Of a stretch of 64,000 nucleotides of DNA, positions 13,079 through 48,250 are shown one piece after another. Source of the DNA: Marsupella aquatica (Eukaryota; Plantae; Marchantiophyta); contig OZ316894.1 of assembly GCA_973895155.1 (NCBI GenBank), forward strand, positions 5,294,944 to 5,358,943, in the 5' to 3' direction. The stretch's first letter is position 1; every line of letters begins with the position of its first letter. A model generated the notes under the pieces. That model was not told where the DNA came from and ran no database searches. It worked only from the letters and a program-made list of their open reading frames with translations. A program made the position numbers and the translations under genes.

Positions 13079-15750
13079 GGTCGGTATTGTGCACAGTTTA
13101 TACGACCACCGACTTAAACTCTCCTCGATCCATATTCATCAGGAGCTCCAGAGGTCTAGAGTGGAACCGACCTGAATACAAACTGAATAGTTTGCTTTGC
13201 ATAGAACGAGGGAGTGACTTCTGCAATTGGACATTCGAGACAATTTCCAACACATTGTTAGTGATCTCTGTCTCACAGCATGTGTGGAATGAAGACGACA
13301 TAATTGTTCGCACTTGCGGGAGGACGACAGGGAATGCACGATGCAGTCGAGGTGGCAAAAAGACATTACTTAAAAACAAAAGCGGCGAACGACAATGGAA
13401 TTTGATCACATCAGCTAAGGGGAATCAGCCATGGAGTGATTTGAGGTGAACGACAATGATAATTGATATCATTTGGTAAGGGGAATCAGCCATGGAATGA
13501 ATTGAGGTGGGAAATGGACCAAGACATCTGTTCTTGAGCAGTGTCTGCCTCTGTCCATCGAGCCTTTCTGAGCTCCAGTGATTCGGAGGTGAGGGTGAAG
13601 TTTTGAGATCAGGGAACGATTTATTGAGAAGGTTGATCAGTTCATTAGAAGATCGAATCTCTTTTGAAGAAGTCACTGTTCGGTCAGTTGCCTTCGGTAC
13701 TCGAGGATCAGCCGGGCTCTCAACGTACAAGTGAATAGCGTGATTAACTGAAATCTTCTGGGGACGCAGATAGATGAGCTTGCAAACTATAGCTCTTCAC
13801 GAATTGGGTCTCTAGCAGTCCAGGACATTGGTATTGAACAGGCCCAAACGAAGTGGGGAACATCATCACGCGAAAATGAACCCAAAACGCACAATTTTTG
13901 TGGCTAACAAGATCTAGAAGTATCGTGCAATACCTGATAAGCATGTTTTCTGGTTCCTCAAGCTCACGAAAAGAAATCGACCGTCCCACAGCACAGTGAA
14001 GTTGACCTTGTCAAGTCGGTTCACATCCCTTCAATATCATCTCTCGTCCGCACTGTAGAACATTTGGAAATCAGCAGAAATCACGAAAAGATAGAAGAAA
14101 CTGAAGATAATGTGATGCCGCGTTCACCTGGTGCACCGGTTCTAATCCAAGAGCCTAGCGAAAGCCTGCAGAACAATTGTGGACGGGTTTGTGATGTTTG
14201 TACGAGAACAATTCATTGGGATTGTGTGACCTTTGGCGCTCGGACCGATTGACCTGGCTTTACAGTTTACCCTTCCAATGCCCACCCTAACAAGTCAGCA
14301 CTTGAAGGAATTGTAAATTATGAATTTTCCTAGGGGCCCACCTTCCAGCGAAGGTATACCGGCCCTAATGAGGATCCCACCGGGGGACCACAGCGACTGT
14401 AAACCTGACGTGTTGAGTTTGTTCCCTTTTGCACTAGGTCGCTGTTTCATTTGAACGAAAGGAAGGTTGCCCCGGCAGCGATCGGTTTTAGTGGACGAGA
14501 GATTTTTTTACATGATGATATGAGTTGAAGTTTGTTGAACTGATGGATAATTTACAAGACCAAGCTAACTTGGAAAGTTGGTCAGTCCGGGAATTTTGCT
14601 ATTGCAACTTGGAGCTTGTTGATATCAAGAATCATCCACAACCTTGTTTTGTAGACGATTAGCAGGTTGCAAGGTGTTCAGATCCGGCCAGATCGATTTG
14701 TAGATTAAAATAGATTTCAATTGTGCAATTTTGGCGGTAAGCATTTCACACGTAGAATCAAGGCAGATGAAGGAAATCGATGAAATATTCGGTAGAGCTG
14801 ATAAAAACCCCTCCCAATTTTAAAGCAATCTGTACAAAATTAAGGAGGCATATTTGGGTTTTCTTCCGAAACTTCTCCATAGGAATACGAAATTAATGGA
14901 TGGAAATTTGCCGGGCTCCTATCTTTCCACAGCTTTGGTCAAGGAAAATTGCTGCTTGGAAATTTTGCGTGTGGAAATACAGTTTCAGAGAAGGGACAAG
15001 ATTGAATTTCAATATTTCTGTCACCCACAAATTTTGCTGCTTACCATCACCAGAATTGAGCCAGAGATATGCAGAATGTGGAATTCTGTAGATCAATTGA
15101 ACCACATATCTCCTGCCCGACTCGCATTTGAAAAGTTAGACATTGGAAAGTGACCATAGCTTGTCACTACTTGACCTCTTGCTCAAGCACGACAAAAGCA
15201 CCTAATGCTAATGCCAGTTGCTTTGGATTACATCCTGAGTGCGCTGGTGAAGGCAGAGGGGATGGGAGACTGCACCATCCACTCGGGCATTCACTCGTCG
15301 CGGAGATTGTACCAGATTTTACTTCAGCATCCTCTGCGTTAGCTCCGTCTGCCGCTTCATGAAATGCGGACACGCAATTCAAGACCTAGTGATTTGGAAA
15401 AGGAGAGACAACTCAAAATGACCTTCACTATCAGCTATGTATTGGTACTGCGATTGCCGTCATAGCCACTTTCAGATGAAATGTCCAAGGTTTTTGAGTG
15501 ATAAACTAAAGGGCAGTGTTGTACTTCGTGGCACAGAAGTAGGCGACCATTGATTGACCATAAACTTAGACTGCCACAAATGGACTCAATCTGGGGTGAA
15601 AGGAAGACCCTATCCATTTGTATCTCATCTGAGCACTGGTGGCTGCGGGAACTGGGAAACAAGTCCACCCTCGTCAACGTTGTATGCAAGGACTCAACTG
15701 CCAGAGTCCACCCTGAAAAAAATGTAATTACCATCTCCCACAGGTTGACC
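13079..15750. repeat. Segmental-duplication block A, copy 2
   Basis: Colinear with 1-2648 apart from small indels, and directly abuts the 5' region of HNL copy 1. Confidence 0.93.
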
Positions 15751-16732
15751 AAATATATTGCCCACTTTCAGATCAGCAGGAGGGCCCCGAGCCAACTGCA
15801 CCAATCGTAGAGAATTTAGATCAATCCTCAGCACCTGCAGAGTCTCGGGATACAACCCCTTCGTAACCAACATCAGCCAATTCGACTTGCAAACCACCAC
15901 GTTGACGCTGACATTCTCGAGTACGTCGTCACACGACAACCTCAGTTCCTCGGAAGTCCCTTCCTCTGTGCTCATAACCAGGTCATTGACTGCCACCATG
16001 TAGAGAACTCCATTGAGATTCGTGGCAGTGGAAGGTCCCACAGAAAAATCCCCTGAAACAGCGAAATCTTTGCTGTTCCAGGTTTCTGACTTGGAGTCAT
16101 AGATCTGCGCAAAATAGCCACTCCCACCACAGGAGAGGAGGATCAGCTTGTATGTCTCCGTAGATGGGTCTATCACCAAATTGTTGCAGCTGACATAACT
16201 AGTCCTCAGCGGACAAGCTGGCAATAGCTTCCAGGTCCGGGTCAAAACGTTGGCCACATACAGATTATGCATCCCAGTCCCCATTTCCGACCAGGGAAAC
16301 CCATACAACAGAGTTCCTTCCATTCGCCAATATGACCTGGACAGGAACTGATTCCGGCTCCCCAGGAACAAATTGTCAGGCAAGAAAGAAAGCGAGGTCA
16401 GTTTGGCCGAATTTTGAGATGCCCTGTCGTAAGCAAGGGCATTCTCCTTGCCAATGAGGACAGGGGAGAAGCTCTCCCAAACTGGCAATGAGGACAGGGG
16501 AGAAGCTCTCCCAACTGTTGGACCACTTACCCACCTGATTCTGAAATGATGCAGCAAGGGACTTCTGGGCTTCGTCAGATTGCGATGGAATGGGCGAGAA
16601 TCTGGCCAGCCATGATTTCAAGAGGCCCCGAGCTTTGAATATGTACGGGAAAGGCACCATTGTAACAATCCTTTCTACTAAGTCCCCTGGTAAGATCTGA
16701 CTCACCTCCCCCAAGTTCTCTCCCACCACCAT
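15566..16732 (-). pseudogene. F-box protein with kelch/FBA-like beta-propeller C-terminus, intronless, disrupted
   Basis: F-box motif LPGDLVERIVTMVPFPYIFKARGLLKSW, then LYVANVLTRTWKLLP, YKLIL, AQIYDSKSETW and LNGVLY. A 34-bp tandem duplication at 16452-16519 shifts the frame. TGA at 15696-15694 is CGA in the paralogue, and there is a 4-bp deletion near 15665. Confidence 0.85.
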
Positions 16733-25286: not shown

Positions 25287-25446
25287 TCACAAGTCCTGAT
25301 TTCCCACATAGTCAAAACGGTGGCCTTGTCCTTTCAGGGACCAAAGGTGTGATACCAGGTCATTTCTCAACGAAAAATGAGTTTCAGCATCTTCAATGGC
25401 TCGTGTAGTAGCCAAGTATTCCGCCCAATTCTGCCTACCAAGGTCT
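25287..25446 (-). pseudogene. C-terminal piece of the Harbinger transposase, separated by the copia insertion
   Basis: Removing the copia element joins ...RAQTGKD to LGRQNWAEYLATTRAIEDAETHFSLRNDLVSHLWSLKG...QDL* in frame. H..LR.DLV.HLW is the usual plant PIF transposase C-terminal motif. Confidence 0.88.
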
Positions 25447-25789
25447 TGTTAGGTATTTACTCAAGGTCTAGGGTTATGACATGTAACCATAGTTAGACTA
25501 ACCGTAGTCGGAGACGTGGTTAGGTTAACTAGGATGCACACTATATGCCAAGCGGTGTTTGCTTGGATAAGTGGAACTTAGGCTCATTGTTATGGAGCCA
25601 CTTGAGAGATGAGGAGAGCTTACACTGTGGAGACTTGGTATGACCGACGGGCTTAGAGTTCAGTAAAGCTCTCTTGTGTGTTCCCGTGGACGTAGCCTCG
25701 AGGAGGTGAAACACATATCTCTTGTGTCGACTACTTGCGCGTTGAATGTGTCATGTGCTTATCGTTACGAGTGTCGTCTATGCTCAACA
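25447..25789 (+). repeat. copia 5' LTR
   Basis: tgttaggtat...tgctcaaca. About 10 substitutions relative to the 3' LTR by manual count. Confidence 0.96.
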
Positions 25790-25803: not shown

Positions 25804-26995
25804 ATGCTTGGGAGGTGACGTGTGTTTGTGACGGGATTTTGTGACGGTTTTTCCAGCGTTGAGTGTTGGTGGATTTCCCAGAGTTTCGTCGCATGGAACT
25901 TGGAGTTTATGGGCTCAACGGATAGATCGGGGCAAGGACTTTCTAACGGTGTGAAGAAATTGCTGAATGGAGCTTGTGGTGCAGAGAGATCTAATTTTTC
26001 ATCGTTCTGGATTTTGTGAAGAAAGTCGGCAACATTCATGTTCGACGGTTTTTTGGAGGAGGGACCAGAGTTTGTTTTCTTGACGATGTGAGCTCTATGG
26101 TGAAGGAGGCATTGCATGCTGTAGCTCTGCTTGTAGATCGGGATGAGCTGTTTGTTTTGGTAGCTGATTTATTACCAAGTGAGTACCGTGTGCGACGGGA
26201 CGAGCAAAAGAAGCGTTCTGATTTTCTGACCGGTTATGGAGTCTTATTTTGCCTGAGAGGGGTTTCTTGTCGTGGCAATCGACTCGGAGGGAGAAACGTC
26301 AAGTGTTTTGACTCAACGGAGAGATTGAGGCAAGACGATTGTTTTGAGTCCGGGATTGGCTCTTTGATGCGAAGAGGAAGGCTAAGCAAAATCAATTACC
26401 TTGTTGGACTTGGTGACGGCACCAAGTGCAATTCATCAACATTCGTTGTTGACAAGGTACCATTTTTTTCTCTTTGAAAAACTGATTCAAAATTGGCTAT
26501 GGCGATTGAGAGAAATCTGTCATCTTTACTAATTTTTTTCTCCCTCGTTCTTTCTTCGTTTTGGGTGTTTCTTATATCGATCTTCACCGCCTCGGAGTCT
26601 AGTTTCCAAATCTGAAATTAGATCTTGATTTTGTGTGACGGGTACCCCGTCACGGGAAGTCACACATAACTGGTTGCAAAGGCCGATACCTTGTTAATAG
26701 TCAATGTAAATAAGCCATTTTTTAATTTTTAGTTAATTCCGTCATTATAGGTTGATGATGCCCCAGGTGACTTTATATTCTTTCTCTCATAATAGTTCTA
26801 AGATTTGCGGCGACCTAAGTGGGCAAATATTTTGGGACCTTGAAACTAGCCAGGACCAGCCCCATAGGACTTACCGTTTTGCTTCAAGAGCTATTGTTGA
26901 GACCCCCATTGCAAAGTCAGGAGAGGGGGGGGTTTTTTTTTAAATAAATCCCTCCTCAGGAGGGCGAGTCCCATTAGTGGCCGTCCGAGAGAAAG

Positions 26996-27316
26996 AGGGG
27001 CTGCCTCGCGAGCCCATAGGGCTGCGTGCCCGGGCGATTAATGGGGCTCCGCGAGCTGAAGGGGCTGCCTCGCGAGCCCATAGGGCTGCGTGCCCGGGCA
27101 ATTAATGAGGTCCCGCGAGCTGGGAGGATCACGCGAGCGGGGGGGAGTTAAAGGGCCTCCCGCGAGCTGGGAGGATCACGCGAGCGGGGGGGAGTTAAAG
27201 GGCCTCCCGCGAGCTGGGAGGATCACGCGAGCGGGGGGGAGTTAAAGGGCCTCCCGCGAGCTGGGAGGATCACGCGAGCGGGGGGGAGTTGAAGGGCCTC
27301 CCGCGAGCCGGGAGGA
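26996..27316. repeat. GC-rich tandem arrays in the gypsy LTR: 2 x 64 bp, then ~4.4 x 47 bp (copy at 37688-38008)
   Basis: The 47-bp unit tcccgcgagctgggaggatcacgcgagcgggggggagttaaagggcc starts at 27111, 27158, 27205, 27252 and, partially, 27299. Confidence 0.95.
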
Positions 27317-27739
27317 ATGGCCGCGCGCCCTGCATAGGGCCGCGCGCAGGAGGACGCAAGGGTAAGGCCCGAGAAATGGGCCGGGGCGCATGGCGAAGGC
27401 GCCAGGAGTTTTTTCGGTTCTATTTTTTTTTCCTTCCTTTTTCTTTCCCTCTTCCTTTTGCACGACCCTCTCATTGCCGAAAGCAAAAACGGGGTTCTTC
27501 TCTCTCTTGCCGGAAGCTCTCTCCAGATTCTAATTATTTTTGAAGCTCTCTCTTTCATGGTGGATTAGTGGGGCTTGCTGGCGTCATTCTTCCAGGCATT
27601 AGTGGCGGCCGCACGGAGTAGTGACGGGAAATTGAGAGAATTTAAGTGATCGGGCTACGGGGGCTGTTTCGGGCCAGGGAATTGACATTGCCACGGGTGA
27701 CGGGATTGGTGATTGAGAAATTGATTTCGGGATGCATGG

Positions 27740-29596
27740 ATGCTAGATCAACCAGAGTTTAGTGCGTCACGCATTCGGAGATACAAGGCTGCTTACCGTG
27801 ACTACGTGGAGACTCGGATTACACGGGAAAGGGAAGAGAGAGAAGTTATGATGAGCACGGGATTGGCAGCGGGTTCCTCACCGGTGGGTAGGAAGATTTT
27901 TCGTCAAATTTATCCCAAGACCTCCACCAAGGTGATGGAGGATTGTCGGAACATTTTCCAAGCCACCGGGCTTACAGAATTCATGAAGGTGGAGATTACC
28001 ATCCCTTCAGGGAAGAGCTGGGACATTGAGGCCGGGATGGAGTTCCGAACGGAGGGAATCTACTTTGAATGTCTCAAACGTGTAGTGCCCCATGTGGAGT
28101 TGGCTAAGCTATTGTTTCTTGAGAATCAGAAATTCTCATTCACACCTCGGAATATCAGGGGAGAACTCACGTTGAAAATGGTGGCCACTTGGGTGACCAA
28201 TCCTACCTCCACCACCGCCATCCCTCTTTCTGCTGTCAAGGATGTTGAGTATAAGGGCTTCCTGGCCAAGGTGCATCAACGGGTTCTTGGCAACGTGCAA
28301 TCCGGAGTGCTGAATGAGGAGCATTTCGTGGTAGCTATGGACATTAAGAACTACCCAGCCCATGTGTACGGATGGTGGTGCTACGGATTGAAGAAGCTAT
28401 TGGCCGCTGAGCCCGGGAGTGTGAAACCAGGTGGGGCTGTACATTTGATGGGGTCATTTGTATTGGCCAGGGCAGAAGGGTTGATTGGTTCTCCGGGGCA
28501 TGAAGACACGGGATCATCTCTCACCACGGAGATCCGGAGTATTGCCACTACCGTTTTAGGGAAGCTCACGGAGGAATCATTGTCTGCTGGTGGGGAGGAT
28601 AATAGAGAAGAAGAGAACCAGGAGGATGATTGCACATTGGAGTGGCTTGAATCACTCGTGGGAGATCCGAAACAGCCTCTGGAATACAACATTCCGGATG
28701 TTTACTTGGCAGAGCTACGGGATTTCAGAGAGGGAGTCCACGAGGGACTCAAGCTAGTCCACGCATTGAGGGAGTCTCTCAAGCACGCCACAGTCAAAGT
28801 AGAGACGTTAGAGCAGAGCATCCTGTCACTGAAGGAGGTGATCAAGACCAAGGAGCAGACCATTCATGAGAAGGTCAGGCACATCAATGCAGCTCACGTA
28901 GAGATCACCAACTTGAAGGGAGCTTTGTCCACCAAGGCCAAGGAAGCAGAAGAAGTAGGAGCGTTGAGGCAAGCATTGGCCAAAGAGAAGCAAAATTCTG
29001 GAGAAGTGATGGAGTGGAGGAACCAGGTGGGAGCACTACGGAGTCAGGTGGCAGCCTTTGAGACACGAGCGAAGAGAAGTGAGGCCCTGAGTCTAGGGAA
29101 ACGGAAGAGTCCCGGCACACCTGGCTCCACACTTTCCCCGGATGTGATCTCCCAAGCTATCGAGATGGTGGTGAAGGAGGTTAGTGGGAAGTATGGACCC
29201 TTGTTGGATGGAGCCAAGAAGAGTCAGGAGAAGAGTAAGAGCTTGGAGAAGAAGCTCCGGGAGGTACGGAAATCGTTACGGGAGGCTCAGGTCAGTACGG
29301 GGATGCCACCCAGGTCTGTCACCCCCGGGACTCCCATGGCCACGGGGCAAGTTCTACCGTTGGAGTTGCGGTCCGGAGAAGAGGCTACCCTCTGGAAGGA
29401 CACAATTGGTGAGGGGTACATCAAGGCGTGGCAGGCCTTGGCTGCTTTGAGGAAGCGCGGGAGCAGCAGCACTAAGAGTACTCCGTCGAAGAAGAAGAAA
29501 AGTACGGTGGCACTCACTCCCGTGAGTGATGAGGAGGAGGACCACTCACGGGGCACAAGTCCGGGCACCGAGAGCGAAGAAGAAGAGGAGGATTAG
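27740..29596 (+). CDS. LTR-encoded 618-aa accessory protein (globular N-domain, coiled coil, basic and acidic tail), 5' LTR copy
   Basis: Uninterrupted 1857-bp ORF entirely inside the LTR. Heptad-rich segment at about aa 325-515, KKKK basic patch, EEEEED C-terminus. Confidence 0.9.
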   Translation: MLDQPEFSASRIRRYKAAYRDYVETRITREREEREVMMSTGLAAGSSPVGRKIFRQIYPKTSTKVMEDCRNIFQATGLTEFMKVEITIPSGKSWDIEAGMEFRTEGIYFECLKRVVPHVELAKLLFLENQKFSFTPRNIRGELTLKMVATWVTNPTSTTAIPLSAVKDVEYKGFLAKVHQRVLGNVQSGVLNEEHFVVAMDIKNYPAHVYGWWCYGLKKLLAAEPGSVKPGGAVHLMGSFVLARAEGLIGSPGHEDTGSSLTTEIRSIATTVLGKLTEESLSAGGEDNREEENQEDDCTLEWLESLVGDPKQPLEYNIPDVYLAELRDFREGVHEGLKLVHALRESLKHATVKVETLEQSILSLKEVIKTKEQTIHEKVRHINAAHVEITNLKGALSTKAKEAEEVGALRQALAKEKQNSGEVMEWRNQVGALRSQVAAFETRAKRSEALSLGKRKSPGTPGSTLSPDVISQAIEMVVKEVSGKYGPLLDGAKKSQEKSKSLEKKLREVRKSLREAQVSTGMPPRSVTPGTPMATGQVLPLELRSGEEATLWKDTIGEGYIKAWQALAALRKRGSSSTKSTPSKKKKSTVALTPVSDEEEDHSRGTSPGTESEEEEED

Positions 29597-30727
29597 ATAG
29601 GCGTACGGACGTGGGTGTACGGCCTCCAGATTTCCAACATTTTAGTGGGGGGTCACTCATGGGCTTGTTGGGATGAGCTCGCGGAGCTGATTCCAACAAG
29701 AGGCGGCGCTCCTCAAACGGAGCCAGGATGAGCAAGTTATGGCCTGGAGAACTTATGTTTTTGCGGTACGGAAACGGCCATAACTCAGGCGTCTGAAGTC
29801 CGTTGAGGGAGCGACTTAGTGATTCGGAAGCAGGAAAAGAAGAGCTATCCAGGGGTGAGCTCAGGTGTGCACTTGGAAGGGCACCTAGTTTCGGCCATTT
29901 TGGGGTGCCTCTCACTTTCAGGGTTCACGTGTACTGTTGGGGCGCCGTCGAAGGCACCGTCGGCCCCCTTGTTTTGGGTTTAGGGTTTTAGCAGCATGTG
30001 TGTGCCGCATGCTCCTCTTCAGTTTAAGGATTTCTCTTAGTGCAAGGTTTTAGCGGCGCCGCTAGGGTAGCCGCCACCGTTGTGACCCTGTGAGGGGTGC
30101 TTTGGTGTGATTTTTCAGTATTTAGGGGGATAGCCCCGAAGTAGTTAGGGGGACTCAGTGTGAAGTTAGCAAGGAGGGATAGAGTGGAGCCTGAGGAGTT
30201 TGAAAGCGTGTTCAGAGTAGTGAGGGGGAGCCATACTCATTGTCCGGAGAGGCAGGAGTTGAGTAGACGGCAGGAGGCCGGGTTACTCATGCAATGTGTA
30301 TCGTTTTTCCCAAGAGATATGGATCTGTACATTTGACTTGATGGGCTTTTGTTGTGTGTTCCTTCTCCCTTTTTCGCTTTCCGAATTGTGTTCTCCCGTT
30401 CTATGATTTGAAGAAACTTGCTTGGTTTGAGTCGGCCTTGTGAGTAGGGGTGGTGACAGCACTCTTTGGGTGACTCCGAGTGAAGGTGTAGTGGGGTAGT
30501 CGGCAGGACTTGATCAAAAGCTGTGGGGTGAGGGTAGTCGGTAGACTTGATCAAAACCTACATTTCCGGGAGCGGAAACCAAAATACTCATCCTGGTGTG
30601 AAAAGAATCCAAATAGCGTCCCTCCACGACCCCGTAATACGATACCAACGGTTTAAGCGAAGAAAAGTGCGGTTTGCACGTATTAACCGTTGGAGAGGCA
30701 AGTGACATAAGTGAGGTCTTTTGTTTT

Positions 30728-30745
30728 TGGCGCCGCTGCCGGGGA
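30728..30745 (+). promoter_or_regulatory. gypsy primer-binding site, tRNA-Asp type
   Basis: tggcgccgctgccgggga differs by one base from the Athila-type TGGCGCCGTTGCCGGGGA and lies 20 nt downstream of the LTR end. Confidence 0.85.
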
Positions 30746-30962
30746 ATCCTTCTTCTTGTTTGACGACACGAAGGAGGGGAGCTACGTCTATTGGGAGTTC
30801 AAACCTATCAACCACAACGCAACTTGCGACGGTTGATACGTGAGAAGTTTGTTGGTTACTTTGTTATTGTACGTCAACCACAACGCATCGTGCGACGGTT
30901 GATGTTTACAAATATTGCTTTCTGAGACATTGGTGTAAGTTTGGAATGCAGGTCTCAATGGG

Positions 30963-33900
30963 ATGCCGAGAGGGAGAAGGGGAGGTAGAGGAAGTCCCCA
31001 ACACACACGTACCCCAAGATCAGAGCTAGAAGGGGGGCCCTCTTGGATTGGGACCAGACGACGAGTTGCTGCCGAAGAACGCTTACGGCTTGCAGAAGAG
31101 AGGAGGTTGCCACTGGTGCTGGAAGAACAAGTTGGTGTGCAACAGGAAGAGGCTCAACGTAATGAGGCCATATGCCCAGACGAAGAGCCAGACATAGATC
31201 ACGAGCGAGAAGAAGGAGAGCCCTTTGTGTTGGTGCAGTCTGAGTTACAAAATCTGATCCCAGAGCTCACTGCATTGCCACAAATCATCTCACACCTATC
31301 ATCGGTGCTGTTACCGGTGGCCCAACAAGCGCCATTACCACCTGTGTTGATACAGGCACCGGCTGCACCGATGGCAGCTGCACAACGTACCCGTGTTCAG
31401 TACGTACCCTTCAAGGGGAGACCAAAGGATGATCCAGACGAATGGATTGAGGAGTTTGAAGGGATTGCCGAAGCTAATGGGGAGTCTGCACATAAGCTCA
31501 CTATCATTCCTGGAATGATGAGAGGGGAGGCAGGTCCATGGTTCATTTCGTTGTTGGCCAACGTGAAAGCTGATTGGGCTCTGTTCAAGCAAGCCTTCTT
31601 GAAGGAGTTCAGATCCATAGGAGTGGAGGCCACCTCACTATTAAAGGTGGGCCAACTCAGGATGAAGAAGAAGGAGTCATTACGGAGGTTTTTGCAAAGG
31701 TTCCAAAAGCTGGTACGTCGGATCCAAGCCCGTACCGATGATGCTATGCGTCAAGCCTGGTTTGTGGCTGCCCTACCAAGCAAGATGGGGTTCTTTGTAC
31801 GTCAAGCCAAGCCAACCACATTGGCTGAAGCTATTGCAGCAGCGGAGTCATACACCGCAGCTGATGCCACAAGCAAGCGTTGCCGAAGAAAGAAGCTGAA
31901 GCCGGTTGACAGTTCCTCCAGTGAGGAGTCGAGTGGATCTGATTCAGATAGTAGTGATGAATCTGAGGATTCTGAGAGTACTACAGAGTCAGACACTACG
32001 GAGTCAGAAGCTGAAAGACGAAGGAGGAAGAAGAAGAAGTTGTCAAAGAAAGTCAAGAAGTCCTCTCACCGTGAAGTGATACTACCCACGGTGGCCGTTA
32101 CACCATTGTCTACGGCAAGACGCCTGAAGGAGCAAGAGGCCAGATATGATGAGCTGACGGAGCAAATGAAAGCGTTGAAAGTACATTTTGCCGGACTCAA
32201 ACCTGAGAGGAGAAAAGTTCCGGTGGAGAGAGCCAATGTGTGGTGCACCAAGTGCATGAAGTTTGGTCATGCCCCGAAGGAGTGCCCAGCGGGAGAACCA
32301 GCCAAGGTTTTCCAAGTACGGGAGGAGGATGTTGAGGGGGCAAGCTACTCAAATCCTTCATATGCAGCGGAAGGGCCAATAGAGTACTTCATGGAGGAGC
32401 CACCAGAGGCCAACGTGTATAGTGTACAACCTCTCAACCCGGGACCACGGAGCATTCATGGAGTTTCAACAAACGCCGGAGCACCCGCATACTCCAACTA
32501 TCCCAACGCTAACCCAGGGAATCGACCACCGTACCCTGGAGTGAGGAAGATCCCTATTTGTTACAATTGTAGAGTGGCGGGCCACTACGCTAATGTGTGC
32601 CCAGAGCCCACCCGTCAAGGCAATGGAGATTTTGCCCGGCTGTGTCAACTATGCAAGGGGGAGGGTCATCTTGCACCACACTGCCCAACCTTGGAGGCGT
32701 TCAAGGCTCAACCGATTGGGGCACAAGAGAAGAAGGGGCCGCCACCTCCTCTGAAAGAAGCTAGCGTCAACTTTCTCACCACGGAAGCAGTCGACACCCC
32801 TCTAATCACTAGAAGAGAAGAAACCGTAGTGAACATTCCCAAGCAAAGGATGACCACCATAACGGAGGAGGTGGTACCGCTAGTCGTTGTAGTATCTCCA
32901 GTTGTTGAGATACCGGTGGTTGTTGTTGCAACATCTACGGAAGTTGAAGTTGCTAACCCCTCACCCCCAAGTCATGAGTGGACTCATGCTGAGAATCTAC
33001 CGGAGGAAGACAGCGACGAGGAGAGAAGGCATTACTCTTGTTACCGAGTCTCCACTCGATCCGGCAAAAAGAAGGGCAAGTCCGAGCTCAAGCAGAAGTA
33101 CAAGGAGGTGCATCAAGCTTCCACATCGGGTACCTCACACGAACCGGAGGTGCCACCCATGGAGGATAGTGACTTTGATCGGGACAACCCCAAGTTGTTC
33201 TATCCGAAGGTGGGAGAAGAGGTACGTAAGCAGTTGGAGGAGCTAGAAGCACAAGCCATGCAAGCGGCCATTGACAAAGACATGGAGGAGGCAAAGGCCA
33301 GAAAGAAAGCGGAGGAGAGGGTTGTTCGTTGGAAACCGGGAGAAGAGGTCATCCCACCCATACCTCCTGCAACCGCGTACAACATTGCTCAAGACATTCT
33401 GGATTGCCCAGTCAGTGCCACAATTGGTCAACTATTACGGGATAGCTCCCTATACCGTCGCCAAGTCAAGGAGATTCTCATGAGGAGGAGACGTAGAAGA
33501 AGGTTACCCAAAGTTGGGGCTGACCCCATACAAGTCAACTGGGTCACGGAGGATTTGGGTGCCCCAGAACTCACGGTGGACATCAATGGATGTGCAATAC
33601 GGTTTGTACCGGTGGACGGGGGCTCGGGAGTCAACATCATGACTGAGGAGACGGCAAACCGGTTGGGGTATACAGAGTTAGAACCACCGGCACGTGCCAT
33701 GAGGTTGGCTGATGGTGCACGGGTGGTGCCGTTGGGGTGTCTCACCAAGATTCCAACAATGATTGGGGGAAAATCTTTCCCCCTCAACTATTTGGTGATG
33801 CGACCCGTTCGGCCGTACGGTTTTCCCATTTTAATTGGCAGGCCATGGTTGTATGTGGCCAAGGTCACAAGTGATTGGGGCAAACGGCAGTTTCGGTTTG

Positions 33901-36900
33901 GTATCCCCACTATCACTATTCCATGGTCAGCGGAGTCACCTCACGGGGAGACTACGACTATGGAGGAGGAATATGATTCAGAGGTCACCTCAGATGAAGA
34001 CGAGGATGAAGTATACATGGTGAAACTGATTTCTCACCTCACGGAGGAAGATGTTTTTGGCCCCGGAGTTGCTACTCAAGAGCATGCAGTAGAGGAATCA
34101 GTTAGCCAAGTGCACGCTGTTCTAGAAGAGATGGAAGACGAGCGAAGCAAAATTGTGGAGGCTGAACCTCTAGAGATTCATGATAGGGAGGCAGAGGATC
34201 ACCCCGAGGAGGTGGAAATGCAAGCCCACACGATCATGTTTGATGATGAGCAAAGAGAGCAGTTTTTGAATGACATCCTGGATGATGACTTTAGAGAGGA
34301 GCTATTGTCACATTACAAAGAATCTGACGTTGAAGAAATAATGGCCCATGTGACAAAGGATCCACCTCCATCCCGACCAGACCAGGAGGAGAGTGATGCA
34401 CCGGTGTATGGAGGGATGAGGCTCGCACGGTTGGAAGAAACCTTTGATGAGGAGACACGCAACAAGTTGGACGTGATCAGGCCGGAGCAGTACACAAAGG
34501 TGGAAGTGGGTGAGGGCAAGACACTCAACATTGGTAGTAAGTTGGATGCTACGGAGCAACGCACGATTCAGGAATTGTTGAAAGAGTACCAAGACGTATT
34601 TGCGTGGAGCCACCAAGATTTGAAAGGAGTGCCACCTGAGTTTGGTGAGCACAGCATTGACCTGATGTCAGGAGCACGACCTGTGAGGCAACGCCAATAC
34701 CGCCTCAACCCCAAATACTCACTCATGGTGAAGGAGGAGATTGACCGTTTGTTGGATGCAGGATTCATTTATCCGGTCATGCATAGTGAGTGGGTGTCAC
34801 CCATCGTAATCGTGCCCAAGAAAAAGGGGCCAGACGGGAAGGTGAAAATACGGGTGTGCCAAGATTTTCGAAAGTTGAATGATGCGACCAAGAAGGATCA
34901 CTACCCGCTACCGTTCACGGATATCGTGTTGGACATGGTAGCAGGTTGGGAGATATACAGCTTCTTGGATGGCTACTCTGGGTACAACCAAATCTGGATA
35001 CGGGAGGAGGACCAACTCAAGACGGCTTTCACAACAGAGTGGGGGATTTTTGCATTCCGGAGAATGCCTTTTGGGTTGTGCAATGCCCCTGGCATGTTCC
35101 AACGGCTCATGATGAATATATTTCATGACTTTTTACGCAGGTTCTTGGAGATCTTTATTGATGACTTTGCTGTCTACGGCAAACGAGTCAAGCATCCGGA
35201 ACACTTACGGTTGACTTTTCAGCGGTGCCGGGAGACTTGCCTGAAGCTGCATCCGGAGAAATGTTTCTTTGGAATTGAGGAGGGAATCCTATTGGGCCAC
35301 AAAGTGTCTGCACGAGGGATTGAAGTTGATCGTGAGAAGGTCGCCGTGTGGGTAGCAGTCTCATTTCCCAAGAATGTGAAGGAAGTGAGAGGGTTCTTGG
35401 GGTGTGTTGGCTACTACCGACGCTTCATCAAAGACTTTGCCAAGGTAGCCATGCCACTCACTTCCATGTTGAAAAAAGGAAGTGAGTTTGAACCTACTCC
35501 TTCCCGTCAGGCTGCTTTTGATGAATTGAAGAAACGATTGCTAGAGGCCCCCGTGCTCATTACGCCCAATTGGAATAAGGAATTCCATGTTTACGTAGAC
35601 GTATCAGGATTTTGCATCGGTGCCGTTTTGAGTCAGTTAGATGATGATGGAAGAGACCATCCCATCTACTTTGCCAGTAGGCAGTTGGCCCCGGCAGAGA
35701 AAAACTACTCACCCACCGATAGGGAGGCACTTGGTATCATCTACGCTTGTAAGAAGTATCGTCATTATTTGTTGGGGTACAAGGTTGTGTTCCACACGGA
35801 TCACAACAGCTTGAAATACATGGTCAACAAGCCAGATCTGTCCGGGAGAATTGCACGTTGGGTTTTGTTGCTACAAGAGTTCAACTATGAGGTGAGAGTA
35901 AGATCGGGGAAGAGTCATAGCAATGCAGACTTCTTCTCCCGTATTGAGGGAGCATCTGACTCCCAGGAGATTGATGATCGGTTCCCGGATGAGGAAGTAT
36001 TCAGCGTGAATACAGAGGCCACTACTTGGTATGGAGAAATTTTGGAATTTCTCCGCACGGCTAGAGTTCCCTCACGTTTGGGCCCGGAGAGAGCAGCAGT
36101 GTTTTTGCGTAAGACAGGTCCCTACTTGCTTGTGAAGGGAGTACTTCACAAGTACGGCATGGATGGCCGACTTCGTCGTTGTTTGGAGGAAGCGGAGATA
36201 CGTACAGTCATGGCAGCATTACATGAGGAGGAAGCTGGTGGCCACTTTGCACGGGAGACCACCGCAAGGAAAATACTAGATGCTGGATATTGGTGGCCAA
36301 CTCTCTTTCGGGATGTACACCGGTACATCCAGCGATGTGATCCGTGCCAGCGTCAAGGCAAACCAGGGCCCTCCTCACGACACCCATTGGTGCCCATACT
36401 TCCTCTTGCACCCTTTGAGAAGTGGGGGGTGGACTTCATTGGCCCTTTCACTCCCATCACACGAAGAGGGAGGAAGCGCTACATCATTCTTGCAACGGAC
36501 TATGCCACCAAGTGGGTGGAGGCCCGAGCTACTGCCAAGGATGATGCCAACACCACGGCACGTTTTTTGTATGAGCAGATTTTTACACGATTTGGTCCAC
36601 CATTGGAGTTGGTAAGTGACAGGGGTACTCACTTCCTCAATCATACGATTGAACGTTTGACGGAGAACTACTTGATCTCACATAGGAAGACCACTCCGTA
36701 CCACCCTCGAGCCAACGGGCTCACTGAGAGAGCCAACGGGATCATGGGCAAGATCCTCAACAAAACGGTATCCGCTCACAAGACCGATTGGGATTTGAAG
36801 TTGTTGGCTGCCACTTACGCTTACAACCTGGCTCACAAGACTACCACGGGCCACAGCCCCTATTTCCTTGTGTTTGGACAACACTCTCTTGTGCCGGTGG

Positions 36901-37361
36901 AATTTGAGGTTCCAACCATTCGAATCCTAACACGGGAAAGGGAAGGGGCAGAAGAAAGTGTCGCTTCACGGATCCAACAGTTGGAGCAACTCACGGAGAC
37001 ACGAGAAGAGGCTTTGACACATACGGAGCAGGAGCAAGGCAAACGCAAGTCACATTACGATTCCCGTCTCCGTCGTGTGTCCATTGAGGAGGGAGATTTG
37101 GTGCTCCTCTACGATAGCCGCTTCATGCATTTCCCCGGGAAGTTGCATACACGGTGGATGGGACCCTACGTAGTGGATGCCGTCTACTCCAACGGCTCGG
37201 TTCAACTCAAGACATTGGAGGGGCAACTACTCAACACACGGATCAATCAAGAGCGCCTAAAGAAGTACTACACGGAGGAAGAGTATGGTGCTCGCGGGGG
37301 CGCTTCGCAATTAAGAGAGGAGCTATGTGACGGGTACCCCGTCACGGGAAGTCACACATAA
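30963..37361 (+). CDS. Ty3/gypsy Gag-Pol polyprotein, intact
   Basis: Gag (FKGRPKDDPDEWIEEFE), three CCHC knuckles, protease VDGGSGVNI, RT (CQDFRKLN, MPFGLCNAP, FIDDF), RNase H (VDVSG, NYSPTDRE), integrase HHCC, DDE and GPY. No chromodomain. The stop codon lies inside the 3' LTR. Confidence 0.97.
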   Translation: MPRGRRGGRGSPQHTRTPRSELEGGPSWIGTRRRVAAEERLRLAEERRLPLVLEEQVGVQQEEAQRNEAICPDEEPDIDHEREEGEPFVLVQSELQNLIPELTALPQIISHLSSVLLPVAQQAPLPPVLIQAPAAPMAAAQRTRVQYVPFKGRPKDDPDEWIEEFEGIAEANGESAHKLTIIPGMMRGEAGPWFISLLANVKADWALFKQAFLKEFRSIGVEATSLLKVGQLRMKKKESLRRFLQRFQKLVRRIQARTDDAMRQAWFVAALPSKMGFFVRQAKPTTLAEAIAAAESYTAADATSKRCRRKKLKPVDSSSSEESSGSDSDSSDESEDSESTTESDTTESEAERRRRKKKKLSKKVKKSSHREVILPTVAVTPLSTARRLKEQEARYDELTEQMKALKVHFAGLKPERRKVPVERANVWCTKCMKFGHAPKECPAGEPAKVFQVREEDVEGASYSNPSYAAEGPIEYFMEEPPEANVYSVQPLNPGPRSIHGVSTNAGAPAYSNYPNANPGNRPPYPGVRKIPICYNCRVAGHYANVCPEPTRQGNGDFARLCQLCKGEGHLAPHCPTLEAFKAQPIGAQEKKGPPPPLKEASVNFLTTEAVDTPLITRREETVVNIPKQRMTTITEEVVPLVVVVSPVVEIPVVVVATSTEVEVANPSPPSHEWTHAENLPEEDSDEERRHYSCYRVSTRSGKKKGKSELKQKYKEVHQASTSGTSHEPEVPPMEDSDFDRDNPKLFYPKVGEEVRKQLEELEAQAMQAAIDKDMEEAKARKKAEERVVRWKPGEEVIPPIPPATAYNIAQDILDCPVSATIGQLLRDSSLYRRQVKEILMRRRRRRRLPKVGADPIQVNWVTEDLGAPELTVDINGCAIRFVPVDGGSGVNIMTEETANRLGYTELEPPARAMRLADGARVVPLGCLTKIPTMIGGKSFPLNYLVMRPVRPYGFPILIGRPWLYVAKVTSDWGKRQFRFGIPTITIPWSAESPHGETTTMEEEYDSEVTSDEDEDEVYMVKLISHLTEEDVFGPGVATQEHAVEESVSQVHAVLEEMEDERSKIVEAEPLEIHDREAEDHPEEVEMQAHTIMFDDEQREQFLNDILDDDFREELLSHYKESDVEEIMAHVTKDPPPSRPDQEESDAPVYGGMRLARLEETFDEETRNKLDVIRPEQYTKVEVGEGKTLNIGSKLDATEQRTIQELLKEYQDVFAWSHQDLKGVPPEFGEHSIDLMSGARPVRQRQYRLNPKYSLMVKEEIDRLLDAGFIYPVMHSEWVSPIVIVPKKKGPDGKVKIRVCQDFRKLNDATKKDHYPLPFTDIVLDMVAGWEIYSFLDGYSGYNQIWIREEDQLKTAFTTEWGIFAFRRMPFGLCNAPGMFQRLMMNIFHDFLRRFLEIFIDDFAVYGKRVKHPEHLRLTFQRCRETCLKLHPEKCFFGIEEGILLGHKVSARGIEVDREKVAVWVAVSFPKNVKEVRGFLGCVGYYRRFIKDFAKVAMPLTSMLKKGSEFEPTPSRQAAFDELKKRLLEAPVLITPNWNKEFHVYVDVSGFCIGAVLSQLDDDGRDHPIYFASRQLAPAEKNYSPTDREALGIIYACKKYRHYLLGYKVVFHTDHNSLKYMVNKPDLSGRIARWVLLLQEFNYEVRVRSGKSHSNADFFSRIEGASDSQEIDDRFPDEEVFSVNTEATTWYGEILEFLRTARVPSRLGPERAAVFLRKTGPYLLVKGVLHKYGMDGRLRRCLEEAEIRTVMAALHEEEAGGHFARETTARKILDAGYWWPTLFRDVHRYIQRCDPCQRQGKPGPSSRHPLVPILPLAPFEKWGVDFIGPFTPITRRGRKRYIILATDYATKWVEARATAKDDANTTARFLYEQIFTRFGPPLELVSDRGTHFLNHTIERLTENYLISHRKTTPYHPRANGLTERANGIMGKILNKTVSAHKTDWDLKLLAATYAYNLAHKTTTGHSPYFLVFGQHSLVPVEFEVPTIRILTREREGAEESVASRIQQLEQLTETREEALTHTEQEQGKRKSHYDSRLRRVSIEEGDLVLLYDSRFMHFPGKLHTRWMGPYVVDAVYSNGSVQLKTLEGQLLNTRINQERLKKYYTEEEYGARGGASQLREELCDGYPVTGSHT
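37313..37322 (+). promoter_or_regulatory. gypsy polypurine tract, inside the integrase coding sequence
   Basis: aagagaggag ends 3 nt before the 3' LTR start at 37326. Confidence 0.75.
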
Positions 37362-40300
37362 CTGGTTGCAAAGGCCGATACCTTGTTAATAGTCAATGTA
37401 AATAAGCCATTTTTTAATTTTTAGTTAATTCCGTCATTATAGGTTGATGATGCCCCAGGTGACTTTATATTCTTTCTCTCATAATAGTTCTAAGATTTGC
37501 GGCGACCTAAGTGGGCAAATATTTTGGGACCTTGAAACTAGCCAGGACCAGCCCCATAGGACTTACCGTTTTGCTTCAAGAGCTATTGTTGAGACCCCCA
37601 TTGCAAAGTCAGGAGAGGGGGGGGTTTTTTTTTAAATAAATCCCTCCTCAGGAGGGCGAGTCCCATTAGTGGCCGTCCGAGAGAAAGAGGGGCTGCCTCG
37701 CGAGCCCATAGGGCTGCGTGCCCGGGCGATTAATGGGGCTCCGCGAGCTGAAGGGGCTGCCTCGCGAGCCCATAGGGCTGCGTGCCCGGGCAATTAATGA
37801 GGTCCCGCGAGCTGGGAGGATCACGCGAGCGGGGGGGAGTTAAAGGGCCTCCCGCGAGCTGGGAGGATCACGCGAGCGGGGGGGAGTTAAAGGGCCTCCC
37901 GCGAGCTGGGAGGATCACGCGAGCGGGGGGGAGTTAAAGGGCCTCCCGCGAGCTGGGAGGATCACGCGAGCGGGGGGGAGTTGAAGGGCCTCCCGCGAGC
38001 CGGGAGGAATGGCCGCGCGCCCTGCATAGGGCCGCGCGCAGGAGGACGCAAGGGTAAGGCCCGAGAAATGGGCCGGGGCGCATGGCGAAGGCGCCAGGAG
38101 TTTTTTCGGTTCTATTTTTTTTTCCTTCCTTTTTCTTTCCCTCTTCCTTTTGCACGACCCTCTCATTGCCGAAAGCAAAAACGGGGTTCTTCTCTCTCTT
38201 GCCGGAAGCTCTCTCCAGATTCTAATTATTTTTGAAGCTCTCTCTTTCATGGTGGATTAGTGGGGCTTGCTGGCGTCATTCTTCCAGGCATTAGTGGCGG
38301 CCGCACGGAGTAGTGACGGGAAATTGAGAGAATTTAAGTGATCGGGCTACGGGGGCTGTTTCGGGCCAGGGAATTGACATTGCCACGGGTGACGGGATTG
38401 GTGATTGAGAAATTGATTTCGGGATGCATGGATGCTAGATCAACCAGAGTTTAGTGCGTCACGCATTCGGAGATACAAGGCTGCTTACCGTGACTACGTG
38501 GAGACTCGGATTACACGGGAAAGGGAAGAGAGAGAAGTTATGATGAGCACGGGATTGGCAGCGGGTTCCTCACCGGTGGGTAGGAAGATTTTTCGTCGAA
38601 TTTATCCCAAGACCTCCACCAAGGTGATGGAGGATTGTCGGAACATTTTCCAAGCCACCGGGCTTACAGAATTCATGAAGGTGGAGATTACCATCCCTTC
38701 AGGGAAGAGCTGGGACATTGAGGCCGGGATGGAGTTCCGAACGGAGGGAATCTACTTTGAATGTCTCAAACGTGTAGTGCCCCATGTGGAGTTGGCTAAG
38801 CTATTGTTTCTTGAGAATCAGAAATTCTCATTCACACCTCGGAATATCAGGGGAGAACTCACGTTGAAAATGGTGGCCACTTGGGTGACCAATCCTACCT
38901 CCACCACCGCCATCCCTCTTTCTGCTGTCAAGGATGTTGAGTATAAGGGCTTCCTGGCCAAGGTGCATCAACGGGTTCTTGGCAACGTGCAATCCGGAGT
39001 GCTGAATGAGGAGCATTTCGTGGTAGCTATGGACATCAAGAACTACCCAGCCCATGTGTACGGATGGTGGTGCTACGGATTGAAGAAGCTATTGGCCGCT
39101 GAGCCCGGGAGTGTGAAACCAGGTGGGGCTGTACATTTGATGGGGTCATTTGTATTGGCCAGGGCAGAAGGGTTGATTGGTTCTCCGGGGCATGAAGACA
39201 CGGGATCATCTCTCACCACGGAGATCCGGAGTATTGCCACTACCGTTTTAGGGAAGCTCACGGAGGAATCATTGTCTGCTGGTGGGGAGGATAATAGAGA
39301 AGAAGAGAACCAGGAGGATGATTGCACATTGGAGTGGCTTGAATCACTCGTGGGAGATCCGAAACAGCCTCTGGAATACAACATTCCGGATGTTTACTTG
39401 GCAGAGCTACGGGATTTCAGAGAGGGAGTCCACGAGGGACTCAAGCTAGTCCACGCATTGAGGGAGTCTCTCAAGCACGCCACAGTCAAAGTAGAGACGT
39501 TAGAGCAGAGCATCCTGTCACTGAAGGAGGTGATCAAGACCAAGGAGCAGACCATTCATGAGAAGGTCAGGCACATCAATGCAGCTCACGTAGAGATCAC
39601 CAACTTGAAGGGAGCTTTGTCCACCAAGGCCAAGGAAGCAGAAGAAGTAGGAGCGTTGAGGCAAGCATTGGCCAAAGAGAAGCAAAATTCTGGAGAAGTG
39701 ATGGAGTGGAGGAACCAGGTGGGAGCACTACGGAGTCAGGTGGCAGCCTTTGAGACACGAGCGAAGAGAAGTGAGGCCCTGAGTCTAGGGAAACGGAAGA
39801 GTCCCGGCACACCTGGCTCCACACTTTCCCCGGATGTGATCTCCCAAGCTATCGAGATGGTGGTGAAGGAGGTTAGTGGGAAGTATGGACCCTTGTTGGA
39901 TGGAGCCAAGAAGAGTCAGGAGAAGAGTAAGAGCTTGGAGAAGAAGCTCCGGGAGGTACGGAAATCGTTACGGGAGGCTCAGGTCAGTACGGGGATGCCA
40001 CCCAGGTCTGTCACCCCCGGGACTCCCATGGCCACGGGGCAAGTTCTACCGTTGGAGTTGCGGTCCGGAGAAGAGGCTACCCTCTGGAAGGACACAATTG
40101 GTGAGGGGTACATCAAGGCGTGGCAGGCCTTGGCTGCTTTGAGGAAGCGCGGGAGCAGCAGCACTAAGAGTACTCCGTCGAAGAAGAAGAAAAGTACGGT
40201 GGCACTCACTCCCGTGAGTGATGAGGAGGAGGACCACTCACGGGGCACAAGTCCGGGCACCGAGAGCGAAGAAGAAGAGGAGGATTAGATAGGCGTACGG

Positions 40301-41399
40301 ACGTGGGTGTACGGCCTCCAGATTTCCAACATTTTAGTGGGGGGTCACTCATGGGCTTGTTGGGATGAGCTCGCGGAGCTGATTCCAACAAGAGGCGGCG
40401 CTCCTCAAACGGAGCCAGGATGAGCAAGTTATGGCCTGGAGAACTTATGTTTTTGCGGTACGGAAACGGCCATAACTCAGGCGTCTGAAGTCCGTTGAGG
40501 GAGCGACTTAGTGATTCGGAAGCAGGAAAAGAAGAGCTATCCAGGGGTGAGCTCAGGTGTGCACTTGGAAGGGCACCTAGTTTCGGCCATTTTGGGGTGC
40601 CTCTCACTTTCAGGGTTCACGTGTACTGTTGGGGCGCCGTCGAAGGCACCGTCGGCCCCCTTGTTTTGGGTTTAGGGTTTTAGCAGCATGTGTGTGCCGC
40701 ATGCTCCTCTTCAGTTTAAGGATTTCTCTTAGTGCAAGGTTTTAGCGGCGCCGCTAGGGTAGCCGCCACCGTTGTGACCCTGTGAGGGGTGCTTTGGTGT
40801 GATTTTTCAGTATTTAGGGGGATAGCCCCGAAGTAGTTAGGGGGACTCAGTGTGAAGTTAGCAAGGAGGGATAGAGTGGAGCCTGAGGAGTTTGAAAGCG
40901 TGTTCAGAGTAGTGAGGGGGAGCCATACTCATTGTCCGGAGAGGCAGGAGTTGAGTAGACGGCAGGAGGCCGGGTTACTCATGCAATGTGTATCGTTTTT
41001 CCCAAGAGATATGGATCTGTACATTTGACTTGATGGGCTTTTGTTGTGTGTTCCTTCTCCCTTTTTCGCTTTCCGAATTGTGTTCTCCCGTTCTATGATT
41101 TGAAGAAACTTGCTTGGTTTGAGTCGGCCTTGTGAGTAGGGGTGGTGACAGCACTCTTTGGGTGACTCCGAGTGAAGGTGTAGTGGGGTAGTCGGCAGGA
41201 CTTGATCAAAAGCTGTGGGGTGAGGGTAGTCGGTAGACTTGATCAAAACCTACATTTCCGGGAGCGGAAACCAAAATACTCATCCTGGTGTGAAAAGAAT
41301 CCAAATAGCGTCCCTCCACGACCCCGTAATACGATACCAACGGTTTAAGCGAAGAAAAGTGCGGTTTGCACGTATTAACCGTTGGAGAGGCAAGTGACA
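37326..41399 (+). repeat. gypsy 3' LTR (4074 bp)
   Basis: Near-identical to 26634-30707 and followed by TSD TTTTG. Confidence 0.97.
38432..40288 (+). CDS. LTR-encoded 618-aa accessory protein, 3' LTR copy
   Basis: Same ORF as 27740-29596 apart from one Q/R change (FRQIY vs FRRIY) and one silent change. Confidence 0.9.
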   Translation: MLDQPEFSASRIRRYKAAYRDYVETRITREREEREVMMSTGLAAGSSPVGRKIFRRIYPKTSTKVMEDCRNIFQATGLTEFMKVEITIPSGKSWDIEAGMEFRTEGIYFECLKRVVPHVELAKLLFLENQKFSFTPRNIRGELTLKMVATWVTNPTSTTAIPLSAVKDVEYKGFLAKVHQRVLGNVQSGVLNEEHFVVAMDIKNYPAHVYGWWCYGLKKLLAAEPGSVKPGGAVHLMGSFVLARAEGLIGSPGHEDTGSSLTTEIRSIATTVLGKLTEESLSAGGEDNREEENQEDDCTLEWLESLVGDPKQPLEYNIPDVYLAELRDFREGVHEGLKLVHALRESLKHATVKVETLEQSILSLKEVIKTKEQTIHEKVRHINAAHVEITNLKGALSTKAKEAEEVGALRQALAKEKQNSGEVMEWRNQVGALRSQVAAFETRAKRSEALSLGKRKSPGTPGSTLSPDVISQAIEMVVKEVSGKYGPLLDGAKKSQEKSKSLEKKLREVRKSLREAQVSTGMPPRSVTPGTPMATGQVLPLELRSGEEATLWKDTIGEGYIKAWQALAALRKRGSSSTKSTPSKKKKSTVALTPVSDEEEDHSRGTSPGTESEEEEED

Positions 41400-41923
41400 T
41401 TTTGTCAAAACCTGAGTGAGATATCTTGCGTTTGGTGTTGAGGGGTACATTCTACCGTGTGTATTTTCTGCGCGCGCGACCAGATTTTGACGACGAAGGG
41501 TGCTAGGGGGTTTTGGGGGTTCGAGGACATGTGTCAGCCCCTCAATTGCTCTTCCAAAATCCCAGCAGGGCCTGTACAAGGGTCATAGAATATTCCAAAA
41601 AACCAGAGAGCTATTTTTTGTCCGTCCGTCAAAGATTCCGTCTGCCGGAAGATAATTTTTTTTGTTCGTCTTCGGCAAGTTGCTAGCCATCGGAGTTGGC
41701 AACGTGGTGCACAAATTTAATTGCATTTCAAACGTCGGGTACTAGTTCACATTTTGGTTATTCCCCGAGGTGGTCAAAACGGGGGAGAATTCCATGTTTT
41801 ACCCACCCCGACCGAAAAGTGAATAACTTTTACGTCGGAGTTTGGTTTTGATTTTAGTTTTCAGCATTGGAAAGCTAGGCTTGTGGGCTACGTTGCGGTG
41901 ATAACTTTTGAGTTTTTTAAGAA

Positions 41924-48058: not shown

Positions 48059-48250
48059 GGGTTTTTCTTAACATTCGCTGTAATTACTGATATATGCTCT
48101 TCTTCACTCCTAGTAATAGACTACGGCTTAGTTCTGGTTTGCTCTAGTTAGAGAGGGGAAACCATGTTGGTTTTCGTCCAAAACTTCCCGCTGAGGAATC
48201 ATATAGGTTAGCAGTATTACCCTCCCCTAGACCAGAGTCAAGGGGGAGAT

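Follow-up and report, generated by a model that had tools for sequence, protein, structure and literature searches.

VANC21 binds a short motif that is amplified in the tandem repeats of its own transposon, and causes demethylation (available text of PMC5735166). VANC proteins resemble the plant mobile domain (PMD) of MAIN and MAIL1, which oppose Polycomb silencing at DNA motifs (available text of bioRxiv 10.1101/2024.09.27.615353 and PMC13547354). The accessible portion of PMC13547354 describes VANC as dicot-specific and reports that, in silico, the Athila domain oligomerises through coiled coils. What the extra ORFs of non-chromovirus retrotransposons do in plants is a long-standing question, and a 2026 paper lists, in its available part, a role of the Athila ORF in modulating silencing as uninvestigated (PMC12844716). 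As far as their accessible sections go, reviews locate the extra ORFs of plant elements within the internal region (PMC7264820, PMC6317226, PMC3485330, PMC1142308, PMC11728184, PMC12885004). In the literature that we searched, with partial coverage, there was no description of an LTR-located plant accessory ORF, of a liverwort case or of a link between VANC and a retrotransposon.

The window, i.e., the whole 64-kb stretch of Marsupella aquatica DNA that was analysed, contains a full-length LTR retrotransposon at 26634-41399. Its two LTRs of 4,074 bp have TG...CA ends and show only two differences, one non-synonymous (27906) and one silent (28345). The parts of the element are as follows.

26629..26633: left target-site duplication, TTTTG, 5 bp
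26634..30707, plus strand: 5' LTR, 4,074 bp, TG...CA, with the accessory ORF within
26996..27316, plus strand: GC-rich tandem arrays, 64 bp x2.0 and 47 bp x4.4, with 14 CGCGAG matches; candidate binding sites
27740..29596, plus strand: accessory ORF, 618 aa, first copy
30728..30745, plus strand: primer-binding site, beginning 20 nt beyond the LTR end
30963..37361, plus strand: single gag-pol ORF with Gag, zinc knuckles, protease, RT, RNase H and integrase
37289..37325, plus strand: conserved CGCG box and polypurine tract (PPT), adjoining the 3' LTR, within the integrase reading frame
37326..41399, plus strand: 3' LTR, 4,074 bp
38432..40288, plus strand: accessory ORF, second intact copy, with one amino-acid difference
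41400..41404: right target-site duplication, TTTTG, 5 bp

The retrotransposon is a young, intact Ty3/gypsy non-chromovirus with Athila-like traits. Pfam searches of gag-pol for a chromodomain and an additional RNase H (aRH) found neither. The primer-binding site, which we take to be complementary to tRNA-Asp, is identical in sequence in four related loci. The final 12 codons of the gag-pol ORF reach into the 3' LTR, and the internal part of the element lacks a non-coding region at its 3' end; the PPT and the first 36 nt of the 3' LTR (37289-37361) encode the last integrase codons. In RT trees, the pol fell together with metagenomic rows and those of Riccia and Marchantia (SH-aLRT 96); adjacent to them were seed-plant rows, for which the Athila label is our own. 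The first of these trees kept 87 of 120 hits, arachnid and short rows being dropped, and the second was a quick IQ-TREE search on 38 chosen rows.

The gypsy element sits within the leader of a copia element that is older (LTRs at 25446-25789 and 48250-48593, internal part at 25790-48249), whose LTRs are 97% identical and whose gag, integrase and RT pieces at 44105-48058 are interrupted by stops. Next to the copia 3' LTR lies a Plant_tran / DDE_Tnp_4 transposase fragment (48535-49197, minus strand). Two copies of a hydrolase (DUF676)-NB-ARC-LRR gene arrangement, about 43.3 kb apart (7030-12416 and 50250-55729, both on the minus strand), are part of a tandemly duplicated block; this arrangement is that of the HNL class of NLRs, which liverworts and mosses are known to have. 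The window also holds a Myb-domain ORF (61070-62398, plus strand) and a weak F-box-type beta-propeller ORF (15694-16617, minus strand). In one run, near-identical LTR contigs were covered about twice as deeply as an internal contig, although depth in that run does not equal copy number.

Each of the two LTRs contains the whole 618-aa ORF, and the copy in the 3' LTR is intact as well. Such an ORF is not expected by chance, since the probability of 618 codons without a stop is ~3e-14, the remaining five frames across it contain 17 to 34 stops each, and its codon usage correlates with that of gag-pol at r 0.72, versus 0.46 and 0.26 for the shifted frames. A search of representative proteins returned 13 homologues with 27-62% identity, spanning both protein ends, and one homologue shares the start Met. 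Four of the eight homologues whose source was looked up are Calypogeia fissa proteins, the other four coming from assembled runs, and an alignment-based protein search added one further Calypogeia fissa homologue. Together with the flanking hydrolase-NLR genes, these homologues point to a liverwort host. A word-indexed protein search retrieved none of 7,995 candidates with the single ORF sequence and two of 7,993 with an alignment. When DNA contigs were aligned to the region, seven of the ten ORF substitutions among the variant rows displayed (40 of 460) were silent. Both displayed indels within the ORF were of 3 nt, and none of ten outside it was a multiple of 3 (12 of 49 rows shown); these tallies are small displayed subsets, not a dN/dS. 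Given the silent-biased variants and the homologues at this range of identity, the ORF looks constrained.

A first reading of this DNA, made from the letters alone and hereafter called the sequence-only reading, had proposed a nuclear rather than an envelope-like product. Its description of the protein held up: the acidic linker, coiled coil, S/T-P motifs, basic NLS-like patches and acidic tail were all found, and every peptide that it quoted is in the translation. The layout comprises an N-domain (residues ~50-255), an acidic linker (~271-300), a conserved W..L.GD..P block (~300-345), coiled coils (322-450 and 468-518), an NLS-like motif and an acidic tail. Heptad checks placed L/I/V/M in 14 of 21 a/d positions versus 8 of 50 elsewhere for residues 322-392, and in 8 of 14 versus 6 of 37 for residues 468-518. 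There are 11 S/T-P sites, a KRK at 454-456 and a bipartite NLS-like match at 571-587. The 19-residue Kyte-Doolittle mean peaks at 1.09; thus, the protein has no transmembrane or signal-like stretch, in agreement with the claim that it is not envelope-like. The hydropathy maxima of four relatives' ORFs, from the elements described below, were 0.84-1.30, and only one of these four ORFs, one of which is truncated, had basic NLS-type patterns. Among eight family proteins scanned, only the homologue P0012 had a hydrophobic N-terminus (2.73), which lies outside its aligned part. Residues ~50-255 are the most conserved part of the protein, from which we infer that they are globular; the low-confidence AF2 model gave no confirmation of this.

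The N-domain had also been likened to the Athila accessory ORF, Transposase_32 or PMD fold. For the query protein itself, the profile comparison did not bear this idea out, as Pfam ATHILA, Transposase_32, PMD, Transposase_28 and DUF1985 matched neither the protein nor its N-domain nor the 13 homologues (E<=10); the Pfam returns for the query were coiled-coil noise only. The structure comparison that had been suggested was uninformative: the AF2 model of residues 1-285 had a pLDDT of 46, and with this low-confidence model Foldseek gave no match and VIA gave helical-hairpin matches only. PDB sequence searches produced no match for the ORF or A5, and coiled-coil or weak unrelated rows only for A3 and A6. 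What survives for the query is a lead from the Atlas ranking, in which the ATHILA and Transposase_32 clusters took ranks 2-3 (0.83 and 0.82), scores below 0.9 being leads that shuffled proteins reach about a third of the time. Both families had been named by the sequence-only reading before this ranking.

A pol-based metagenome scan yielded 46 loci, and the nine closest long metagenomic loci, with pol 57-63% identical to that of our element, were examined. A sense ORF follows pol in seven of the nine, and all seven ORFs form one protein family; L003 ends too early to show the ORF, and L009 stops inside pol. The LTR of L001 and of L002 appears to begin directly after pol and to contain the ORF, since the sequence that follows the PPT agrees with the inverted LTR end preceding the PBS (9/9 and 12/13 nt). 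L005, L006 and L008 have the same PPT and TG start (identified by eye; the regex caught L005 and L006). We infer that the accessory ORF lies inside the LTR in these five relatives, whose LTR boundaries were drawn from motifs in short-read contigs and not from paired LTRs. In L004, the ORF sits between two PPT motifs and the LTR is roughly 1 kb long, as it is in L009. The tail of the upstream ORF of L009 had no significant similarity to the L004 ORF.

In the RT tree, our element joins the loci with an LTR-borne ORF, with support that stays below the starred level (SH-aLRT 93), and the L004 clade falls outside. More distant elements carry the relatives' domain behind pol (E 7e-8 and 1e-4); P0100 and P0177, whose pol has ~45% identity, are still detectably related to the relatives' ORF family. 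On these grounds, the LTR location looks like a derived, clade-wide state. This goes beyond the sequence-only reading: the location is common to a clade of relatives and appears to derive from an internal 3' ORF. In P0100 (residues ~2135-2335) and P0178 (~2900-3070), the accessory domain stands in frame behind the integrase in one predicted polyprotein, through read-through or fusion.

Two candidate ideas about these elements were considered and not retained. One was that the first PPT simply took over from the second; however, the post-pol motif of the LTR-ORF elements is closer to the LTR-abutting motif of L004 and L009 than to the first motif of L004. The other was a conserved splice acceptor ahead of gag, but all five elements inspected have a YAG close to the ATG, regardless of ORF position. 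TATA-like boxes followed by pyrimidine-rich leaders occur 150-310 nt upstream of the ORF start in four of the five relatives (L001, L002, L006 and L008), so that the ORF may lie downstream of the main LTR start site (in R or U5) and not in U3. The LTR of our element has no TATA-like box and has GGCCC/TGGGCC boxes. Scans of viral contigs revealed no relatives, their four PBS-pattern matches being unrelated phage-like contigs, and seven PBS-pattern matches in genome contigs told us nothing about the accessory ORF. The latter (L047-L053) show the primer-site pattern of plant retrotransposons, stem from short contigs in the records of seven bacterial genomes and are probably contaminating plant DNA; a related pol is encoded by L051.

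The accessory domain of L008 could be modelled with a pLDDT of 92.9 from a nine-row alignment. Compared with 48,161 chains, this model matched VANC21 bound to DNA (9lnk_A) with Z 6.6 and rmsd 4.3 over 194 of 211 residues, at 12% sequence identity; a Z of 6.6 is moderate and below the caution level of the tool for helical folds. The next-best match had Z 2.5, and just two of the 48,161 chains reached Z>=2. The VANC21 match covers the domain, stands alone and concerns a protein class that had been predicted in advance. Foldseek with the L008 model returned nothing at E<=0.001 against PDB and viral libraries and missed VANC21. The accessory domain of the relatives is therefore predicted, from the model, to share the VANC21 fold, and the fold guess of the sequence-only reading found indirect support here too, in the positionally equivalent ORF of related elements.

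The link from the relatives to the query ORF is less direct. Comparisons of the two families with hhalign were not significant (P 0.39, 0.12 with 4/60 shuffles as high, 0.38, and 0.11 with 4/30). In threading, seven L008 helix blocks fell in order on predicted query helices, with 0-4 of 120 shuffles scoring as high (similar to the 2/60 of one positive control); among the decoys, 11 of 19 pol windows scored as high, and the reversed profile reached 77.6 versus 82.2 for the real one. Seed-plant Athila-like loci were too degenerate to help, 19 of 54 ORFs scanned and P0177 giving no ATHILA/Transposase_32 sequence. Thus, either the query ORF belongs to the relatives' family and has diverged fast, or it is a replacement. 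By our judgement, its domain probably shares the VANC21-like fold of the relatives.

The replacement reading holds that the query ORF was captured separately and has a different fold, for instance that of an RNA-binding or structural coiled-coil helper, in the same LTR slot. It is suggested by the fact that elements with a more distant pol still detectably match the relatives' family and the query does not, every profile comparison being non-significant and the query's own model reaching a pLDDT of 46; moreover, plant extra ORFs form hundreds of unrelated groups (accessible part of PMC6317226). However, the Atlas lead to ATHILA and Transposase_32 is independent, and both the helix order and the layout (domain, acidic linker, coiled coil) are as in L005 and L008, so that we regard a replacement as unlikely, albeit a serious contender.

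If the query protein is VANC-like, its candidate targets lie nearby. The word CGCGAG has 14 matches upstream of the ORF versus 0.7 expected, and it is common to the 64-bp and 47-bp arrays; the first LTR and internal region together contain 16, and a copy also lies in the box beside the PPT. The relatives L001, L002, L005 and L006 have their own CG-containing words, ATCCGG/TCCGGA, clustered in the non-coding LTR, and motif clusters are present in the internal-ORF clade too. In L002 (1-1395, the 3' part of the LTR), ATCCGG occurs 35 times versus 1.8 expected. Family-specific motif arrays in non-coding parts, a feature of VANC-type systems, were thus found here as well. Such arrays fit a co-evolution of protein and motif and are not diagnostic alone; family-specific tandem arrays are common in Retand elements (available text of PMC11963269).

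Our leading reading, to which we give slightly less than an even chance, is that the element carries an intact LTR-borne accessory gene for what is likely a nuclear protein that has a coiled coil, binds DNA and is of the VANC, plant-mobile-domain or Athila-ORF type; it would keep the element's chromatin active via the upstream repeats. An Athila-type accessory gene would have been absorbed into the LTR, the likely product being an activator or anti-silencer that binds DNA and targets the CGCGAG repeats; in short, the element likely encodes its own putative nuclear on-switch. A shared fold in itself shows no function. The gene would have moved from an internal position between pol and the PPT into the LTR in an ancestor of the clade. 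Each replication would then copy the LTR-borne gene twice, and solo LTRs would keep the gene and its target sites together, so that its action in trans could extend to the whole family. Transcription would start from a promoter upstream of the ORF in the LTR, and the protein would be imported into the nucleus, oligomerise through the coiled coil, bind to the LTR motif arrays and relieve the silencing of family copies. Since PRC2 represses transposons in bryophytes (bioRxiv 10.1101/2022.10.24.513474, available text), either mark, DNA methylation or Polycomb, could be the target. A bolder version, possible though on balance doubtful, is that a bryophyte Ty3/gypsy clade moved a VANC-like anti-silencing gene into the LTR beside its own targets, which would make each LTR, solo LTRs included, a unit of promoter, binding sites and trans-acting de-silencer. 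If true, a VANC-type system would exist in a retrotransposon and outside flowering plants, and Athila-type "env-like" ORFs, PMD and VANC would share one old DNA-binding fold.

A protein of the same fold, likewise nuclear, might instead anchor the pre-integration complex, or the ends of the cDNA, to selected chromatin and thereby serve targeting or nuclear import. The integrase indeed lacks a chromodomain, a CGCGAG copy lies in the box adjoining the PPT, and nuclear import roles have been proposed for plant extra ORFs (accessible part of PMC7264820). The related domain in frame behind pol in the distant P0100 and P0178 points the same way, but these fusions may be gene-call read-through. The proteins known to have this fold influence transcription and the state of chromatin, and our copy, which lies in the leader of a copia element inside a cluster of NLR genes, is one insertion and shows no targeting. 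We therefore consider a targeting role rather improbable, though worth keeping in mind. The reverse of the leading reading, namely that a VANC/PMD-like protein limits the element as a form of copy-number control, would draw on the first description of MAIN/MAIL1 in gene silencing (available text of PMC5418596) and on the fact that a gene in every LTR would scale with copy number. However, VANC and PMD-C proteins counteract silencing where their motifs occur, and the element was recently active, its LTRs differing at 2 of 4,074 nt, which leaves repression quite improbable. A young copy keeps any frame open, so that the ORF might be a non-functional passenger of the element's youth, but silent-biased variants, in-frame indels and homologues down to 27% identity make this very improbable. 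An envelope-like or movement protein, a reading that was already disfavoured, is barely credible in view of the hydropathy maxima of the query and the four relatives' ORFs, even though the post-pol sense ORFs of Athila relatives are traditionally called env-like (available text of PMC7264820 and PMC1142308), retroviral Env has coiled coils and one of the eight family proteins scanned has a hydrophobic N-terminus.

Under the leading reading of a nuclear, VANC-type activator, the predicted VANC21-like fold in this lineage leads to a specific testable hypothesis with candidate binding motifs, for which a very young, intact element is well suited to a direct test. Family-specific pairs of protein and motif would also be candidate tools for targeted de-silencing.

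The LTR-borne ORF is real and unusual, and represents a variant of accessory-ORF and VANC-type systems. The MMTV LTR ORF, which encodes a superantigen, is likewise a protein-coding ORF inside an LTR; the analogy is positional only, the superantigen being a membrane protein of an animal retrovirus that is unrelated to our ORF. Retand TRP28, Grande gene23 and Retrosat2 ORF0 resemble it as extra Ty3/gypsy ORFs with nuclear or predicted DNA-binding products beside tandem arrays. However, those of Retand and Grande are antisense and internal, Retrosat2 ORF0 is internal and upstream of gag, and none is duplicated in LTRs. Unlike Phygy and Selgy, which have a 4-bp target-site duplication and no extra ORF (accessible part of PMC6317226), our element has a 5-bp duplication and an extra ORF. 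With Athila it shares the 5-bp duplication, a single GAG-PROT-RT-RH-INT ORF without aRH or chromodomain and, probably, the PBS type (PMC6317226 supplementary file 3, in its available part), and the Atlas lead of the accessory ORF points to the Athila accessory ORFs (ATHILA PF03078, Transposase_32 PF20167). In contrast to Athila, the ORF has no Pfam match and lies inside the LTR, no internal region follows pol, and the pol belongs to a cryptogam and metagenome clade outside the seed-plant rows. The PMD proteins (MAIN, MAIL1, MAIL2 and the PMD of Ogre elements) are structurally similar to the VANC domain and act at short DNA motifs against Polycomb silencing, but they are host genes or internal ORFs, and their likeness to the relatives of our ORF runs via VANC by published description. 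VANC21 (VANDAL21, a MuDR DNA transposon; PDB 9lnk) is likewise a transposon-encoded protein with a domain and a coiled coil, accompanied by family-specific short motifs in tandem arrays of non-coding parts, and its fold is the one predicted for the domain of the relatives, a prediction that comes from a model of one relative (L008) only. Unlike VANC21, the gene described here belongs to an LTR retrotransposon of a liverwort, sits inside the LTR and has no sequence similarity to its counterpart.
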